DNA of 64,000 nt. Source: a candidate division WOR-3 bacterium (GTDB taxonomy: Bacteria; Hydrothermota; Tepidihabitantia; B3-TA06). This document shows positions 56,991 to 63,745 of the stretch, piece by piece. The notes beneath the pieces were generated by a model. The model saw nothing but the letters and a program-made list of their open reading frames with translations. It had not been told where the DNA came from and did not search any database. The stretch lies in assembly GCA_965649265.1 (NCBI GenBank), contig CBFGKC010000012.1, positions 35,861 through 99,860 of the forward strand, given 5' to 3'. Numbering within the stretch: position 1 is the stretch's first letter; each line of letters starts with the position of its first letter. Both the position numbers and the translations under genes were made by a program.

Positions 56991-57728
56991 TTACCTGTAG
57001 TCTCTGAACTTGTTCCAAACCTCTTCGAACCTGCGCTCGCCTTCGGCTGAGCCGTATTCCCTAGCCAGCCGATCCCCGAGTTCGCTCTTTATTACCAGCG
57101 TGAAATCCGACGATGCCTCCAGAGCGCCCTCCCTTGCGCGCTCGAAGGGTTCCTGGCCCTCCGGGTAGTTTTTCGTGTCCTTGGCGTGCTCGCGATGACT
57201 GTAGGAGAACCTGTCCGCACGGTCGCCGAAAGGCGATGCAACCAGCATCGTGGACTCCGGGAAATCGAATTTGAGGTTGACGACCGACTCGACAAATCGC
57301 TTGCGGTCCGACTCAGTCATGTCGCAGTAGTTTGAATGCGCAAAAACGTCCTGGATAGTGTGAAGGGTCCGGCCAAAGGCTTCGAGCGCATGCCGGTAGT
57401 CGCCGCCGACAAGGTTCTTCAGGATTCGCTCCTTCTCTCTCGTGAGATATGGTATGCTGCGATTGTACGCTCGCTGGGGACGCTCGCCTGCAAGACGGTC
57501 AAAATGACGCTTGAGATGAATCTGGCGAATGCCGACATCCTGGCCCACGTTCGCCTTCTCGACGATGAAGCGAGTGGGGCCGGAGAACCCCAAATCCGCA
57601 AGAACCTTATCAGTTATCTCGCCGTGCTCACCGAATCCGGTAGAAAGCCCTTCTGACCCAAAAGCCATGGCGGTCAGAGGCAGAAGAAATCCGAATAACG
57701 CAACCAGAACAGGCCTTAAGAATTTCAT
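56991..57728 (-). CDS. secreted HET-C/vWA7-N-like (Zn phospholipase C/P1 fold) protein
   Basis: Signal ...AMA|F, H..IT, HFD and GRTLHTIQD.FAHSNY motifs. Confidence 0.65.
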   Translation of the reverse strand: MKFLRPVLVALFGFLLPLTAMAFGSEGLSTGFGEHGEITDKVLADLGFSGPTRFIVEKANVGQDVGIRQIHLKRHFDRLAGERPQRAYNRSIPYLTREKERILKNLVGGDYRHALEAFGRTLHTIQDVFAHSNYCDMTESDRKRFVESVVNLKFDFPESTMLVASPFGDRADRFSYSHREHAKDTKNYPEGQEPFERAREGALEASSDFTLVIKSELGDRLAREYGSAEGERRFEEVWNKFRDYR

Positions 57729-58023
57729 GTAAGCTCCTTGATTTCTATTTTTATTTATTATAGGCATTAAGGCGATAAATCAACTCTTTTTAATTCCCGA
57801 CGAAGGGACTTTTCGGGTTATAATGCCCTTGTAACGAACCCCCTTTTTCAACGATAACGCATCGCTGCTTGACGAATATGATTTTTTTTTCATAATATAT
57901 GTACAGAATCGGGTTACGGGTTATCTGAGGAGTAAAGATAACCTCAAAAACTATTACAAGGTGCAATAACCAAGGGTTCTTTGGTTTTGCTCGTTTACAA
58001 GATACCTTTAAAAGGAGGGTTAC

Positions 58024-59121
58024 GTGCAGTTGTTGCAAAAATTCCAGGAGTGGGCGGTTCCGCTTGCACTTGCACTGACCGCTGCGTTGAGTCTTGTGAT
58101 CTTTTTTCTTTTTGTGATTTACGTGTTTTCAATTTACTCTCACGAACGGGAAAGAGCGTACGTGAAAAGGAACCAGGCGAGATGGCAGAAGCTTTTAAAC
58201 GGCTTGTTTGAAGGAAGCCTTAAGCCTTCCGAAATAAAACTTTCGCGCAAAGAACTCAAACACGTCAGAGATCTTTTACTTGACAGTTTCTTTTCCAAAC
58301 AACTTGAATGCCTCTGGGATAAAGAACGGCAACGGGACGCTTTCTCCGAGCTTAAATTGAATCCATCGTGTTCAGATAAGGCAAGAAGTCTTTATCGCGA
58401 TCTCGGGTTTTTTCGCGAGGACATGCGAGAGCTGGGTTCAAAACGCTGGTGGGTAAGAGTCAAAGCAATGGAAAGGATCGAGGATCTGGGCATAAACGAT
58501 GGGGAGGAGAAATTGCTCAAGCTGCTTACAGACAAGCGCAGCGAGGTAAGGTTCTCCTCGCTCAGGACGCTGGCGGTAATCTCGAGCAAGAGATTTTACT
58601 CAAAACTCGGCGGCATTTTCGATGCGTCTTCCACCTGGTCCTATCTGTATCTCGTCAATATCCTCTACTTTTCAGGCGTGCCTCTGGATGTTCTTGCGAC
58701 ACTGGCATCGTCGGATAATCCCTACAAGAGGAAAGCCGCCGCAATTCTGCTTGGCAGGATTAAAAGCAAGGACAGCGTTACACTTCTTTTAAAACTTGCC
58801 TCAGACGATTTCGAAGAAGTACGAAGAGAAGCCGTACTCTCCCTTGCACGAACCGGTTCGGCAGCCGCAATGCCCCTCTTCTGGCGCAAACTAAAAGACC
58901 AGAGCCCCGAAGTTCGCACTGCAGTGGCTAAAGGAATTGGGGAACTTGGGCAGCTCGCCTTTTTGACAAAACTCGCCGACGACGAGGATTTCGACGTCCG
59001 GTTTCAGGCTTTTGCTTCACTTGCCGGCTCCGGCCTTGCCGGCAGGGAAGCCATTAAGAACTACCGGGGGCGATATCCCGAACTTGCCTCAGAGTTCCTG
59101 CACGGAGGCGTGCATGTATGA
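58024..59121 (+). CDS. membrane-anchored HEAT-repeat protein
   Basis: N-terminal TM helix; repeats L..L..D....VR..A...L; RBS AGGAGG. Confidence 0.8.
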   Translation: MQLLQKFQEWAVPLALALTAALSLVIFFLFVIYVFSIYSHERERAYVKRNQARWQKLLNGLFEGSLKPSEIKLSRKELKHVRDLLLDSFFSKQLECLWDKERQRDAFSELKLNPSCSDKARSLYRDLGFFREDMRELGSKRWWVRVKAMERIEDLGINDGEEKLLKLLTDKRSEVRFSSLRTLAVISSKRFYSKLGGIFDASSTWSYLYLVNILYFSGVPLDVLATLASSDNPYKRKAAAILLGRIKSKDSVTLLLKLASDDFEEVRREAVLSLARTGSAAAMPLFWRKLKDQSPEVRTAVAKGIGELGQLAFLTKLADDEDFDVRFQAFASLAGSGLAGREAIKNYRGRYPELASEFLHGGVHV

Positions 59122-60541
59122 AACCATAGAGAAGATAGTCTTCTGGTACAACATTTTCGTCCTTTTTTATTTCCTGGCAATAAACTTTTCCTATCTGAGC
59201 TTGCTTCTTTTTGCATCGGAAAGACTGGTTTATTTCAAGCGCCGCAGAAGGACGAGAATATGCACCGACGAGCAATGCGTTCTGCTCCCGTCAGTCGCCT
59301 TGATTGTTCCGGCCTACAACGAGGAGCGCACCATTGTTGAAAGTGTGAAATCCTTTCTTGCTGTGGATTATCCGGATCTCGAGGTAATCCTCGTAAACGA
59401 CGGCTCGGGGGACAAAACCCTCGAGGTCTTAAAAAATAGTTTCAACCTTATTGAGAGTCCGCGCGCATCCAGCGGAAAGATCAGGACGCAGATCGTCAAG
59501 GCAGCTTACAGGTCGCGCTCCAATCCACGTCTCGTAGTCATTGATAAGGAGAACGGAGGGAAAGCGGACGCCTTGAATGCCGGCCTCAATTACTCCCGCT
59601 CAAAGCTCTACGCCGGCGTCGATTCGGATTCTCTTCTGGACAAGGATGCGCTGACGCGCCTTGTTCAACCATATCTTGAGCGCGACGCGAAGGTTCTGGC
59701 TTTGGGGGGGATCGTGATGCCGGCCAACGGTTCGAAAATTGAGGAAGGCCAGGTGGTGGAGCCGCGTGTTTCGAAGAAGTTTCTTCCTGCAATACAAACG
59801 ATGGAGTACATTAGGGCGTTTCTGGGCGGCCGCACGGGCTGGTCAAAACTCAACAGCCTCCTCATAATCTCCGGGGCTTTCGGGCTCTTCGAACGAAAGG
59901 AAGTGCTTGAACTGGGCGGTTACCGGACGGATACAGTGGGTGAAGACATGGATATCGTGCTCAGGCTGCACCGCAAGATGCGCGACGACAAGAAAAAGTA
60001 CAAGATGGTTTTCATCCCGGACCCGGTGTGCTGGACACAGGTTCCCGAATCATTAGGCTCTCTTGCGATGCAGCGAAGACGCTGGCAAAGAGGACTTGTC
60101 GAGAGTCTCACGCACAACTGGAAGATGTTTTTAAATCCGCGATATGGTGCGGTGGGTTTGTTCGCGATCCCTTTTTATTTTATTTTCGAGCTGCTCGGAC
60201 CCGCCGTCGAGTTTTCGGGGTACGTTGTCGTAATCCTTGCATGGATTCTCGGCATCATCAACTGGCAGATCGCTTTGGTCTTTTTCATACTGGCAGTCAT
60301 TTTCGGCGTTCTCCTCTCGCTCTTTTCCCTGCTCCTTGCAGAATTCACGACAAAGAAATACACGAGGCCGCTGGACGTTGTAAAGCTTTTCATTTTTGCC
60401 GTGCTCGAAAACTTCGGCTACAGGCAGCTCACATCATGGTGGCGCTTTACCGCCCTCTTCGGCGTCCGCAGTCGCCGCCGCAGCTGGGGTGAAATCGAAC
60501 GGACCGATTTCGCCCAGGCAAAACCCGGGAGGGCGAAGTGA
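59114..60541 (+). CDS. processive GT2 glycosyltransferase (PgaC/NfrB/IcaA-like)
   Basis: PAYNEE, NDGS, GGKADALN, DSD, GEDMD, QRRRW; TM helices. Confidence 0.9.
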   Translation: MYETIEKIVFWYNIFVLFYFLAINFSYLSLLLFASERLVYFKRRRRTRICTDEQCVLLPSVALIVPAYNEERTIVESVKSFLAVDYPDLEVILVNDGSGDKTLEVLKNSFNLIESPRASSGKIRTQIVKAAYRSRSNPRLVVIDKENGGKADALNAGLNYSRSKLYAGVDSDSLLDKDALTRLVQPYLERDAKVLALGGIVMPANGSKIEEGQVVEPRVSKKFLPAIQTMEYIRAFLGGRTGWSKLNSLLIISGAFGLFERKEVLELGGYRTDTVGEDMDIVLRLHRKMRDDKKKYKMVFIPDPVCWTQVPESLGSLAMQRRRWQRGLVESLTHNWKMFLNPRYGAVGLFAIPFYFIFELLGPAVEFSGYVVVILAWILGIINWQIALVFFILAVIFGVLLSLFSLLLAEFTTKKYTRPLDVVKLFIFAVLENFGYRQLTSWWRFTALFGVRSRRRSWGEIERTDFAQAKPGRAK

Positions 60542-61332
60542 AACGTATGATTCTTTTTCTTGTCGCTGCTGTAATCACTCCTGTCTATTCGGATGAAACC
60601 CCCAACAAGATATCATCAGGCTACGAGCTCGATCTCTTCATGCGAACCTCGAATTACGGACCCTGGCATCTCGGGTATCTCGAATACTCCCGCAAGTTCG
60701 ATTTTATGACGCTCGTCGGCCGCTTCAACTATGCGAACAGAAGCTTCGGAGGCCCCGCAAGGAACGGCGTGCAGGTTGAAATGGACGCCTGGCCAAGGGT
60801 TACGGACTGGATGTACGGTTATCTTAATCTGGGCTACTCGCCTTCGGCCATCTTTCCGCGCCTGCGCGCGGGTGTGGAACCTTACTTCAAGCTCCCCTGG
60901 AGCTTTGAAACTTCGCTCGGTTTGCGTTACCTCGCATTCAAAAGCGATTCCACGGATTCCATCTCAAACGTGTTCATTCTTTCAGGTCATCTAGGCAAGT
61001 ACCTCGGAAATTACTGGTTTTCAGTAAGGCCGTTCCTTACCTTCAAACCCCTGGGGGCCTCGATCTCAGGAATAATTCTTGCGCGCAGGTACTTCAAGGA
61101 CGCTGAAAACTACGCGGGCTTGATGCTGGGGTACGGTTCTTCGCCGGAGGAGCTTGTGACTGCCGACCAGGTCGCAAGGGCTTCATCTTACAAGGCCGGT
61201 CTGGAGCTTGCAAAGACCATCCTTCCTTCGTTTTCCATCAAGCCTGCAATCAAGTACGAGTACGAGGAGTACCGGCTTAACCAGTTCGGACATCACCTCA
61301 CGTTCTCTCTCACCGCTGCCGTAAGGTTCTAG
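60538..61332 (+). CDS. YaiO-family outer-membrane beta-barrel
   Basis: PWH..YLEY, R.N.A.R, Q.E.DA.P, Y.YL..G.S, FP..R.G and Y.GNYW motifs; terminal F. Confidence 0.75.
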   Translation: MKRMILFLVAAVITPVYSDETPNKISSGYELDLFMRTSNYGPWHLGYLEYSRKFDFMTLVGRFNYANRSFGGPARNGVQVEMDAWPRVTDWMYGYLNLGYSPSAIFPRLRAGVEPYFKLPWSFETSLGLRYLAFKSDSTDSISNVFILSGHLGKYLGNYWFSVRPFLTFKPLGASISGIILARRYFKDAENYAGLMLGYGSSPEELVTADQVARASSYKAGLELAKTILPSFSIKPAIKYEYEEYRLNQFGHHLTFSLTAAVRF

Positions 61333-61333
61333 G

Positions 61334-63583
61334 ATGCACGGAGAAGAAAGGAAAATCTCCGCCAGGACAAGGTTCTTTCGCATCGTTGTCTTTCTTTTCC
61401 TCTGGTTGATGACGGGTTTCACCGTTGGAACCTCGACCCTTATGGGTCCGGTTCGCTGGCTGGCCGGGTTGGGACGCGCCCAGGGTTGGGCGGCAGGCAC
61501 GGAGGACATTCTTGTTAAAGCCGTAATAGTCGCTTTCGTGGGCACCTCATTTCTTCTCGCGCTGTGGCTTTCGAGAACGATATCCCGCTCCCAAAGGCTT
61601 CATGTGAAGATCGGCATACCCGTGCTTTCGATGTTATTCGCGCTCTCCTCGCTCTACCTGTGGCTCAACCCGAGGCTCGCCGGGTCCGATGCAATCATGA
61701 AGGAATCTTCAAACGCGCGCTTCACCTTCGGGCCTTATCCTGAAGAGGAGGACCTGGTGCGTCTCAAACTGGAAGGCTACACGGCGGTAATATCACTTCT
61801 TCACCCGGCGGTGGTTCCTTTCGAGCCCGTGCTGCAGGATAAGGAGGAGCAAGCCGCGCGCCGTGTGGGCATCAAGATCATTCACCTGCCCATGCTGCCC
61901 TGGGTCAGCGAGAACGAGAACGTTCTTGACAGCATTCGCGTCCTGGCCTCATCCGACAAAGGCCGGTACTACGTCCACTGCTACCTGGGCAAGGACAGGG
62001 TAAACGTGGTACGCGGCGTCGTTGAGTCGGAAGGCGTCATGGTTTCATCAAAAGATGCCGAATCACCGCGAAGTCTTTCGGAAATCGGCTCTTTCGAGCG
62101 CGGCCCCCTGGTAAAGCTCGATGAAGACGTGTGGCTTGCGCCGTACCCGACGAATGAGGAGTGGTTTGGATACGTCCTTGCAGGCCAGTTCAAATCCGTC
62201 CTTTCTCTCCTCGATCCGGAAAACCCGGAGGATACTAGCTGGATAACGAAAGAGAAGGGACTGGCCGCTACGCACGGCATAACCCTTGAGTTTTCGCCGG
62301 TGCCCGCCTTTCCTTTCGACCCCGAAGCCGCTCTCGACGCCGTAGACAAGGCTCACAAACTCCGCAAACCGCTGTTCGTCCACGCCTTCCTTCTTCCATC
62401 TGTTCCGGGCGAGGCTTTCGAGCAGGCTTACCGCTCGGGCAAGCCCCCCCTCCCCCCCACCCTCTTTAGAGATTCCTTGCCCAAGAGACGAATGGAGATC
62501 ATCGCCCCTAACGCGGCTGCAGGCCCCGCACCCGGTGACGAGGCTTTCGTGACCTATCTGCGGCTACGGGGTGTTCGCTCATGCATCTATCTGGAAGAAG
62601 GGAAAAATGCCTCATCCCGCAACGAGAGGCGCATCGTTGAAAATGCAGGGCTTTCGTTCGAAGTCCTTGGAGACACATCCGAGCTTTTTGAAGCGCTTGC
62701 GTCTGGTGGCCCTTACTACGTCTATGGCGGCGGGATTGAGGCGCTGAAACAATCGCTGCTTTCGAGATCGACAACCGGCGTTCCCGAATCCGCGGCCGGA
62801 ATCCACGCAGCTCCCAAGGAACCGGCCGGGCGCAGGCAGACAGGCGTAATCCAGTTCGTTCTCAAGTTTTTAAAGCGCGCTCTGCCTGGTCCAAAGATGA
62901 TAATTCTTCTTGCTCCGCTTCTTCTTCTTTACGCCGGCATCTGCGGCTGGTTTTCCGGCCGGCTGCGCGTCAAGCGCAACGTAAACGCTCCGTACACTCG
63001 CAAGGTTTTCCATTTTTTGATTTTCACTATGGCCGCCTTCTTGCAGGTGGCACTGGGTCTGCCCGCGGTCGTGTTGTTCGGTTCAATCGTATCACTCGCG
63101 GTCGTCTATGCCGTGATTCGCGGCAATGGTTACATGTTCTACGAGGCGATGGCGCGTCCCTCGGATGAACCGCGGCGTGCGCTCTTTGTCATCATACCTC
63201 TTCTGTCAACGATTCTGGGCGGGGTAACTGCAAATCTTTTTTTCTCCCAGTATTCGACGGTCGGCTATCTTGTTGCGGGCTGGGGCGATGCGGTGGGTGA
63301 ACCGGTCGGTACACGCTGGGGAAAACACCGCTACAATGTTCTTTCGTTCGGAAAGGTAAAAGCACAGCGAAGCCTTGAGGGCTCGACCGCGATCCTCATC
63401 GTTGGGACGCTTGTGGCCTTTCCGGGCCTTCTTCTTCTGGGCATTCCAGCGCTTACCGCGCTATGGGTCGCGGCCGTCGCAGGCGCAGTCGGAGCGGTCG
63501 TCGAGGCGTTTTCGAACCACGGTCTCGACAATCTTTTCGTCCAGGTTGCCGTTACGGCCGCAGTCTGGCTTTTATTGAAATGA
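61334..63583 (+). CDS. fusion: TM + three tyrosine-phosphatase-like domains + dolichol/phytol-kinase-like membrane domain
   Basis: HCYLGKDR (CX5R) in domain 1, degenerate in domains 2 and 3; C-terminal RK.FH, GWGDA....G...G, SLEGS and DNL motifs. Confidence 0.7.
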   Translation: MHGEERKISARTRFFRIVVFLFLWLMTGFTVGTSTLMGPVRWLAGLGRAQGWAAGTEDILVKAVIVAFVGTSFLLALWLSRTISRSQRLHVKIGIPVLSMLFALSSLYLWLNPRLAGSDAIMKESSNARFTFGPYPEEEDLVRLKLEGYTAVISLLHPAVVPFEPVLQDKEEQAARRVGIKIIHLPMLPWVSENENVLDSIRVLASSDKGRYYVHCYLGKDRVNVVRGVVESEGVMVSSKDAESPRSLSEIGSFERGPLVKLDEDVWLAPYPTNEEWFGYVLAGQFKSVLSLLDPENPEDTSWITKEKGLAATHGITLEFSPVPAFPFDPEAALDAVDKAHKLRKPLFVHAFLLPSVPGEAFEQAYRSGKPPLPPTLFRDSLPKRRMEIIAPNAAAGPAPGDEAFVTYLRLRGVRSCIYLEEGKNASSRNERRIVENAGLSFEVLGDTSELFEALASGGPYYVYGGGIEALKQSLLSRSTTGVPESAAGIHAAPKEPAGRRQTGVIQFVLKFLKRALPGPKMIILLAPLLLLYAGICGWFSGRLRVKRNVNAPYTRKVFHFLIFTMAAFLQVALGLPAVVLFGSIVSLAVVYAVIRGNGYMFYEAMARPSDEPRRALFVIIPLLSTILGGVTANLFFSQYSTVGYLVAGWGDAVGEPVGTRWGKHRYNVLSFGKVKAQRSLEGSTAILIVGTLVAFPGLLLLGIPALTALWVAAVAGAVGAVVEAFSNHGLDNLFVQVAVTAAVWLLLK

Positions 63584-63702: not shown

Positions 63703-63745
63703 CCCGTAACACACCCACCCGTAACACACCCGCCCGTAACACACC
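63703..63745 (+). repeat. 3x 15-bp tandem repeat CCCGTAACACACCCR
   Basis: Direct reading; related to the GTAACACCC unit. Confidence 0.8.

Follow-up and report, generated by a model that had tools for sequence, protein, structure and literature searches.

What would bring a phosphatase-like module and a lipid-kinase-like membrane domain together in a single chain, next to a polysaccharide synthase? The question is raised by the last of four co-directional, tightly packed genes in 64,000 nucleotides of DNA from a candidate division WOR-3 bacterium (assembly GCA_965649265.1, contig CBFGKC010000012.1, positions 35,861-99,860 of the forward strand); this whole stretch is referred to here as the window. 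A first-pass annotation had read the gene as an unusual fusion of three tandem phosphatase domains, of protein-tyrosine-phosphatase or dual-specificity type (PTP/DSP), with a domain resembling dolichol and phytol kinases, and every motif that it quoted is present in the open reading frame (ORF). The answer favoured here, tentatively and at a little less than an even chance, is a trans-membrane lipid-phosphate cycle, probably on polyprenol, that would serve the polymer system encoded by the same cluster. The parts of the protein on which this answer depends are the following.

61334..63583, forward strand: the fusion protein, 749 residues; the whole ORF including the stop codon, in a single uninterrupted frame.
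61334..61666, forward strand: N-terminal anchor, residues 1-111, with three membrane helices and its N-terminus placed inside by hydropathy and by counts of Lys and Arg (K/R).
61679..62068, forward strand: D1, residues 116-245, a PTP-fold domain with an intact P-loop (VIA-align, Foldseek).
61973..61999, forward strand: the P-loop VHCYLGKDR, residues 214-222, with Cys216 and Arg222; invariant in 25 of 25 sequences.
62069..62473, forward strand: D2, residues 246-380, a degenerate PTP-fold domain in which VHAFL replaces the P-loop (hhalign to D1, VIA-align).
62474..62833, forward strand: D3, residues 381-500, the third and most diverged repeat, with GGPYYVYG (hhalign to D2; strand-helix alternation in the model).
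62846..63580, forward strand: C-terminal membrane domain of eight helices, residues 505-749, prenol-kinase-like and of the CdsA superfamily (AlphaFold2, Foldseek, VIA-align, hhalign).
62999..63013, forward strand: RKVFH, residues 556-560 (R556, K557, H560), the R-K-x-x-H 'charged clamp'; invariant.
63284..63385, forward strand: the block from GDAVGEPVGTRWG (residues 651-663) to RSLEGS, with D652, G659, G663 and E682, aligned to motifs of CdsA and of the small relative L119 described below.
63503..63535, forward strand: the block E724...S727-N-H-G-L-D732-N-L, in which E724, S727, H729, G730, D732 and N733 are invariant.

The fusion is genuine. In a word-indexed search that gave 326 relatives, of which 120 were listed, about 90 of those listed (counted by hand from the table) match 92% or more of the query, with identities of 37-68%. 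An exhaustive HMMER search gave 964 cluster representatives at E <= 1e-3, among which are full-length forms, forms with the N-terminal part only and forms with the C-terminal part only. Eighty genomic loci were surveyed by ORF calling and BLAST; they were picked by peptide patterns of the C domain, so that loci with the N module only could not appear. Fused genes are found in 26 of them, from several phyla; in 12 the N module is followed by an adjacent C gene, in four, from Vicinamibacterales, the order is reversed, and one locus has a divergent pair. The N module is thus fused or next to the C domain in 43 of the 80 loci, in both gene orders, and the remaining 37 have the C part only, one of these being truncated where its contig stops. 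Because the gene lies only 417 bases from the end of the contig, where the window ends as well, an artefact of assembly or annotation might be suspected. The intact frame and the conserved architecture rule out the missed stop codon or frameshift that the first-pass annotation had named as fatal to its proposal; the chance of an artefact is negligible, and we count this explanation as already refuted.

The two parts also keep company within a single phylum. Among 151 evenly sampled Acidobacteriota genomes, seven contain the N module and nine the C domain. The C domain is the immediate neighbour of each of the five strong N hits; an N-type match without the C domain occurs in two genomes, and a C-type match without the N module in four. 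The family occurs in many uncultured lineages: Acidobacteriota, Aminicenantes, Calditrichia, Lentisphaerota, Verrucomicrobiota, Margulisiibacteriota and archaeal metagenome-assembled genomes (MAGs). A search of 30 relatives, which range from the same genus to the same class and are 81-100% complete, found the fusion gene in none, and it is therefore regarded as accessory.

The N-terminal half consists of the anchor and a module of repeated domains. The anchor has a conserved GF..GT..L.GP.RW pattern, and G38, P39 and E57 are invariant in a 25-sequence alignment. The repeats start with FGPYPEE (residues 132-138), APYPTNEE (269-276) and AGPAPGDE (396-403), and end with the P-loop in D1, VHAFL (349-353) in D2 and YVYG (462-465) in D3. 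Three slices of a 28-sequence alignment (D1, residues 116-250; D2, 251-380; D3, 381-500) were compared with one another by hhalign. D1 matches D2 with a probability of 97.2% (E 2.9e-11), VHCYLGKD being aligned on VHAFLLPS, and D2 matches D3 at 90.3% (E 1.5e-6), while the match of D1 to D3 reaches just 26% (E 7e-4). By these alignments the three repeats are homologous beyond chance. Three, the number that had been proposed, is also the commonest, although the count is not fixed: forms with D1-D2 (about 600-650 residues) and with D1-D2-D3-D2-D3 (about 980 residues) exist beside D1-D2-D3.

The fold of the module is apparent from an AlphaFold2 model of residues 112-505, which has a mean predicted local distance difference test score (pLDDT) of 81.9. 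In VIA-align, D1 has Z-scores of 9-10 to SsoPTP, PRL-1 and KAP, the match to SsoPTP 7mpc having a Z of 10.0 and a root-mean-square deviation (rmsd) of 3.4 over 127 aligned residues. D2 has Z-scores of 11-12.3 to DUF442 3gxh, PFA-DSP1, Siw14, laforin and TpbA, with 3gxh at Z 12.3 and rmsd 3.2 over 135 aligned residues. Glucan phosphatases are among the VIA-align matches (laforin, Z 10.5; LSF2, 9.6; SEX4, 8.9), as is TpbA (Z 10.3), and Foldseek of the module model gives a probability of 1.00 to DUF442 3gxh, Siw14, SsoPTP and At1g05000. In the model, D1 and D2 have the PTP/DSP fold, and D3 is assigned to it through its hhalign match to D2 only.

D1 is the only repeat with a complete CX5R motif, as the first-pass annotation had stated. 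H215, C216, G219, D221 and R222 are the same in all 25 aligned sequences, and exactly one HCx5R is found in 223 of 228 module-bearing homologues, mostly as HCYLG(K/R/M)DR; such conservation indicates that the P-loop is under strong selection. The invariant segment PMLPWVSEN (residues 186-194) sits at the distance before the P-loop expected of a general acid. In a profile search of PDB sequences, the soluble part gave only insignificant P-loop matches, among them one that aligned the P-loop with HCFAGKDR of MptpB (E 1.6). No Pfam or NCBIfam cut-off is reached on the N half, the closest being PF22741 (PTP-NADK) with 12.7 bits against a cut-off of 27 and the N-terminal part of NCBIfam Blh with 17.5 bits against 625. 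The weak Blh and DUF442 similarities gave rise to a sulfurtransferase reading of D1, which was set aside as the less likely one, a phosphatase being in better accord with the HCxxG(K/R)DR loop and with the setting in the operon. Two homologues carry a further domain in front of the module of three helices and PTP repeats: P0117 has a GGDEF domain and an intact HCYLGKDR, and P0225 has a Ser/Thr kinase domain and a degenerate P-loop (HGYLSGER). Judged from their domain order, these fusions suggest that the module can be used as an outside sensor.

Within the CdsA superfamily, the C-terminal domain is best placed as a divergent member of the kinase branch, an assignment that we infer from motifs and profile comparisons rather than take from a database. 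Its RKxxH, GDAxGEPxGxxxG, RSxEGS and HGxDN motifs are invariant across the 25-sequence alignment, with SLEGS at residues 680-684 and DNL at 732-734. The AlphaFold2 model of the domain has a pLDDT of 95.5 and places helices at model residues 16-42, 48-70, 72-92, 111-158, 177-197, 202-222 and 228-244; these make eight only if 111-158 is a hairpin, as hydropathy and the K/R pattern require. The four best PDB chains in Foldseek are all the CDP-diacylglycerol synthase TmCdsA, with E-values of 0.022-0.14 and probabilities of 0.98-0.82 (4q2g_A, E 0.022, probability 0.98), at a TM-score of just 0.33, which is a weak structural match. Among about 48,000 chains compared by VIA-align, the archaeal CDP-archaeol synthase CarS (5guf_A) matches the motif half of the domain (model residues 130-245; 106 residues, rmsd 3.8) with a Z of 7.0, ranked eighth amid generic helical bundles and within the helical-bundle noise quoted for that tool. 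The nearest named ESM-Atlas clusters are, in order, the phosphatidate cytidylyltransferase, diacylglycerol/polyprenol kinase and phytol kinase families (0.95-0.90), which serve as a lead only, and the JGI name 'phytol kinase' stands on about 25 of the 120 listed homologues.

Profile comparisons carry this assignment further. By hhalign, the C domain aligns at 68.6% (E 4.6e-5) to a profile built from 28 genomic CdsA genes (33 loci scanned); GDAVGEPVGTRWGKH and RSLEGS fall on DTxAYxxGxxFGK and KTxEG, with D652 on the Asp of DTxAY, and the alignment ends before the CdsA C-terminal signature. This signature, which we take to be G-H-G-G-x-x-D-R-x-D and which is also seen in the 28 CdsA ORFs, is replaced by SNHGLDN in the fusion protein. 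Two relatives at the level of order encode proteins of 217 and 219 residues (L119 and L118), found by chance, that match the C domain. The comparison with the 217-residue protein (L119:553-1203) reaches 99.0% (E 2.8e-18) over 196 columns, end to end, and pairs TRKxFH with TREIIH, GDAxGEPxGxRWGKHRY with GDGFAGIIGSRWGKHKY, RSLEGS with KSIEGS and VEAxSxHGLDNLT with VEAISPPNIDNLT. Each small gene is directly followed by a DUF92 gene (PF01940, E 1e-64; L119:553-1976, L118:317-1749). VTE6 is a DUF92 member. A PF01148 search for bona fide dolichol or phytol kinases, in five genomes of named loci and 26 genomes of Bacteroidota classes, returned CdsA- and CarS-type genes only, and the direct comparison with a kinase therefore rests on the L118 and L119 proteins. 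That PF01148 and the NCBIfam models miss this kinase-like gene points to a gap in family-model coverage.

According to one paper (PMC5898192), archaeal proteins fuse a COG0170 (Sec59 dolichol-kinase-like) domain to the same DUF92 domain (COG1836/pfam01940), and both are linked to the cytidylyltransferase family by two conserved Asp residues of a di-metal site. The invariant D732 would be the second Asp of this site. A model of PfPolK, described in a preprint (bioRxiv 10.1101/2023.07.17.549440), has eight helices, and its pocket for cytidine triphosphate (CTP) is marked by an Arg-Lys-x-x-His 'charged clamp'. The likeness to dolichol and phytol kinases that had been proposed is therefore upheld as superfamily membership with the look of the kinase branch, by the Foldseek and CarS matches and by hhalign to CdsA and L119. 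The further statement that such motifs define these families, and CX5R the Cys phosphatases, is too strong, since neither half is recognised above cut-off by any Pfam or NCBIfam model.

Charge counts predict that the two halves work on opposite faces of the membrane. The mean K+R of the predicted inside loops in 25 sequences is 2.2 for the N-terminus, 3.0 for the nine-residue loop between transmembrane helices TM2 and TM3, 3.5 for the A-B loop with YTRKxFH, 2.6 for the C-D loop with ARPxD and 5.0 for the E-F hairpin before RSxEGS. The short loops predicted outside have 2.2 (loop 1, of 23 residues, which also has 2.4 acidic residues), 0, 0.2, 0 and 0.3. With the loops assigned in this way, the conserved polar motifs of the C domain all share one face. 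Helix A must then be entered from the outside, and three helices that start from an inside N-terminus bring the chain there. In P0117 and P0225, an obligately cytoplasmic domain is followed by three hydrophobic helices and then by the module, in agreement with this arrangement. D1 is membrane-proximal, beginning about 15 residues past TM3. The prediction is accordingly that the phosphatase module lies beyond the cell membrane and that the kinase motifs face inwards, so the opposite-face arrangement of the first-pass annotation gains support as a prediction.

The three genes that precede the fusion gene place it in a polysaccharide cluster.

58024..59121, forward strand: HEAT-repeat protein with one N-terminal membrane helix, the first gene of the conserved cluster (Pfam HEAT_2, E 9.6e-27); its homologues adjoin the glycosyltransferase in related loci.
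59114..60541, forward strand: processive family-2 glycosyltransferase (GT2), PgaC/IcaA- and chitin-synthase-like (Pfam Glyco_tranf_2_3, E 3.2e-24; Chitin_synth_2, E 1e-9).
60538..61332, forward strand: YaiO-family outer-membrane beta-barrel (Pfam YaiO, E 1.2e-54; TIGR04390, E 2.1e-43).

The best NCBIfam similarity of the GT2 is to PgaC_IcaA (E 3.7e-42), far under the cut-off of that model; QRRRW at residue 320 is the QxxRW hallmark, and translation likely starts at M35 of the listed ORF. Judged by its genes alone, the layout of HEAT, GT2, YaiO and fusion protein is that of a synthase-dependent exopolysaccharide system, in which the fusion protein is the sole component with a large extracytoplasmic part. 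The order HEAT-GT2-(TPR-)YaiO-fusion gene is found in Aminicenantes, Acidobacteriota, Calditrichia and one further MAG, while in Lentisphaerota and Verrucomicrobiota the fusion gene comes first, followed by HEAT-GT2-(TPR-YaiO). HEAT and TPR-YaiO are confirmed by Pfam in relatives, the latter in L001, L030 and L009, and response-regulator or GGDEF genes are near the cluster in L006, L029 and L030. Among the 43 loci with the N module, a strong GT2 homologue is present in 25 and YaiO in 22, many of the others being short contigs; the adjacent GT2, for which the annotation had proposed a carrier or primer, is therefore a conserved partner. Eighteen genes with the kinase domain only have no conserved partner in their neighbourhoods, except for L029, which has GT2, HEAT and a response regulator; those of Cytophagales, Gemmatimonadota and Cloacimonadota lie in unrelated housekeeping contexts.

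Three contigs binned as archaeal have the fusion gene followed by HEAT and GT2, and YaiO is absent from them, as expected because archaea have no outer membrane. These contigs (L024:221-5050, L026:3-4180 and L028:7995-12811) are Methanofastidiosum or 'Thermococci' by bin label only, and their identity is 37-39%. The YaiO protein of the window (264 residues) is without the part of about 200 residues, made of TPR repeats, that is present in its counterparts L001:6534-7955 and L030:6604-7923. Unannotated genes of about 400 codons with no Pfam match lie inside or beside the cluster in Calditrichaceae (L030:5396-6604) and Aminicenantes (L001:10396-11652). On a Longimicrobiales chromosome (L047:5653-7914), GT2 and YaiO similarities are found in one ORF of 754 residues, which is either a fusion or an artefact of ORF calling.

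A cycle of lipid phosphate would be the simplest chemistry that uses both predicted activities. Its observed basis is made up of the folds, the conservation of the motifs, the fusion or adjacency of the two parts and the operon linkage; to these the proposal would add a topology, the two activities, a particular lipid and a link to the GT2 reaction. The C-terminal domain would be a CTP-dependent lipid kinase of prenol type, whose RKxxH, ARPxD, GDAxGEPxG, RSxEGS and HGxDN motifs would face the cytoplasm. Three helices would anchor an outside module of about 400 residues, with the phosphatase D1 next to the membrane and, after it, one to four degenerate copies that probably serve for binding or as a scaffold. 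The polymer pathway would leave a lipid phosphate in the outer leaflet, undecaprenyl or dolichyl (pyro)phosphate being the most likely, and this would be dephosphorylated outside; the uncharged alcohol would return across the membrane and be re-phosphorylated inside from CTP. The pool of carrier or primer lipid for the neighbouring synthase might thereby be kept or controlled. For dolichol, such a route of dephosphorylation on the far side, back-diffusion and re-phosphorylation by dolichol kinase has been put forward in print (PMC11542857).

A good deal weighs against this proposal. Even with E allowed up to 10, PF01148 (CTP_transf_1) matched none of 28 C-domain sequences, no Pfam or NCBIfam model is over its cut-off on the C half, a profile search of PDB sequences with the C domain found nothing, and the TmCdsA and CarS matches are as weak as described above. 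The two small bridge proteins are themselves unnamed by Pfam, PF01148 included, and by NCBIfam, and are judged probable COG0170-type prenol kinases from the DUF92 context and from their motifs. DSSP on the model makes residues 615-662 one continuous helix of 48 residues, where the topology needs a TM-D/TM-E hairpin. The QRRRW-bearing GT2 looks primer-independent, and processive QxxRW synthases usually need no lipid carrier or primer; the genome also has BacA/UppP. Hydrolysis outside with re-phosphorylation from CTP inside is, on the predicted activities, a futile cycle unless coupled. The C domain is also found alone, in unrelated gene contexts, and the N module occurs without the kinase domain in 102 of 253 collected proteins and in G135; together with the dead P-loop of P0225, this implies a role of the module that needs neither kinase nor catalysis. 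In an alternative, the outside module is not directed at lipid and is instead a periplasmic partner of the synthase, be it a scaffold, a polymer-modifying phosphatase or a sensor of nascent polysaccharide or protein, resembling PgaB, BcsB, AlgK or TpbA, with the kinase as a separate lipid kinase or a membrane platform. The module is suited to this by its place as the only large extracytoplasmic part of the operon, by the glucan phosphatases and TpbA among its structural matches, by the sensor-like fusions of P0117 and P0225, by the variable number of degenerate domains (two, three or five domains in all) and by its many kinase-free occurrences. The DSP matches, however, show just the common fold, and the association with the kinase in more than half of the 80 loci, in both orders, and the closeness of D1 to the membrane speak against this role; the conserved three-helix anchor of its own that the module always has suits a membrane substrate. 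We regard this alternative as unlikely, although it deserves real weight.

The same cycle and topology might operate on a glycerolipid, the C domain being a CTP-dependent diacylglycerol kinase, as yeast Dgk1 is, and D1 a phosphatidate phosphatase, or the pair recycling diacylglycerol from the use of head groups outside. The 96%-complete genome shows no DgkA-type kinase (PF01219) and no DUF92 gene, and CdsA is its only PF01148 match; the lack of a DgkA-type kinase, the name of the second-nearest Atlas cluster and the HCxxGKDR-type P-loops of lipid phosphatases such as MptpB would fit this version. Against it, homologues of 39% identity lie in the same cluster in archaeal MAGs, and archaeal membranes are without diacylglycerol lipids; moreover, the closest small relatives are beside DUF92 genes, a prenyl-phosphate context. 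Because of these archaeal homologues and the DUF92 context polyprenol is favoured, and a glycerolipid substrate seems quite improbable. Less credit still is given to a phosphoryl relay, in which the kinase would load the lipid from CTP, the lipid thus phosphorylated would come to the outer leaflet, and the phospho-cysteine of D1 would pass the phosphate not to water but to nascent polysaccharide held by D2 and D3, after which the free lipid alcohol would diffuse back. If true, the relay would phosphorylate the polymer in a compartment free of ATP and would explain why a seemingly futile pair of kinase and phosphatase is retained in one chain; we consider it very unlikely. Finally, the C domain could be a CdsA- or CarS-like cytidylyltransferase that makes a CDP-activated lipid and not a lipid phosphate. 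CdsA and CarS are indeed the only solved structures that match, and the first Atlas cluster bears that name, but the alignment to CdsA stops short of its C-terminal signature, where E...SxHGxDN stands instead, the prenol-kinase-like L119 protein is matched over its full length and much more strongly, and the RKxxH clamp is described for prenol kinases, which leaves this possibility only a slight chance. A predicted complex of GT2 and C domain scored 0.00 against a mark of 0.32 and is uninformative in either direction.

The polyprenol cycle thus favoured has partial counterparts in several known systems. CTP-dependent prenol kinases (VTE5, FOLK, PfPolK and Sec59/DOLK; COG0170, IPR032974) share with the C domain about eight helices, the R-K-x-x-H clamp, a D-x6-G-x3-G...(K/R)(S/T)xEG(S/T) block, an E...DN block and a cytoplasmic nucleotide site. 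Unlike them, the domain has no PF01148 match, has a beta-hairpin of seven additional residues after the glycine block and before RSxEGS, is fused to or beside an extracytoplasmic phosphatase module, and lies in an exopolysaccharide operon instead of a prenyl-salvage context. CdsA (4q2e/4q2g) and CarS (5guf) are its best solved-structure matches and align in the first Asp and in the GK/(K/R)(T/S)xEG block; the low TM-score, the missing C-terminal signature and the likely transfer of a phosphoryl and not a cytidylyl group set it apart. The module has the common PTP/DSP fold (Z 9-12.3) and the D1 HCxxGxxR P-loop of small atypical Cys phosphatases (DUF442 3gxh/2f46, Siw14/PFA-DSP1, SsoPTP, PRL-1 and MptpB), but it is below every Pfam cut-off, membrane-anchored, predicted outside and extended by one to four degenerate copies after D1. 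TpbA of Pseudomonas aeruginosa is a periplasmic dual-specificity phosphatase that controls Pel polysaccharide via the cyclase TpbB. Like the module, which matches its structures 4r0s and 4r0t, it is a periplasmic Cys phosphatase tied to exopolysaccharide, and the homologue P0117 carries a GGDEF domain; it is, however, a soluble single domain that acts on protein, whereas the domain described here is tethered to one of lipid-kinase type.

To our knowledge, a carrier-lipid phosphatase and kinase have never been joined in one chain. BacA/UppP, PAP2 with the DgkA-type undecaprenol kinase, and DOLPP1 with DOLK follow the same logic, in which phosphate is removed on the far face and added on the cytoplasmic one (PMC11542857); the folds of their phosphatase step are unrelated, and the present genome has BacA as well. 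The Pga, Bcs, Alg and Pel systems share with the cluster a processive QxxRW GT2, a TPR part and beta-barrel porin (in relatives), and a response regulator or GGDEF gene nearby in some loci. In the cluster, a phosphatase-kinase protein takes the place of the usual periplasmic partner (a deacetylase, BcsB or AlgK), and on the cytoplasmic side a HEAT-repeat protein is the partner. Searches of the open-access literature turned up neither the fusion nor the operon, and the lipocone paper (PMC12419801) was judged irrelevant by a term search. Both catalytic folds are already known; their union appears to be new, as do the predicted arrangement on opposite faces, the pseudo-phosphatase domains in tandem and the place in a HEAT-GT2-YaiO system.

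The return of carrier lipid and the chemistry that requires energy outside the cytoplasm are open questions of the cell envelope, and this family would couple a predicted outward phosphatase to a predicted inward lipid kinase of CTP type. The protein offers a single clonable object on which the idea of dephosphorylation, flipping and re-phosphorylation, long discussed for dolichol, could be tested. It would also add a fourth core member, so far unrecognised, to a widespread HEAT-GT2-YaiO polysaccharide system; the two halves of the protein are at present invisible to Pfam and NCBIfam.

Scans of the window for regulatory signals gave six promoters against 3.1 +/- 2.0 in shuffled sequence and 12 terminators against 8.7 +/- 2.9, none above background. 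Just upstream of the operon, on the opposite strand (56991-57767), a protein of 258 residues has weak similarity to Het-C and VWA7_N (E 1e-5 to 4e-4, below the cut-offs). At 63703-63745, 120 bases downstream of the fusion gene and near the contig end, the 15-bp unit CCCGTAACACACCCA is repeated 2.9 times.

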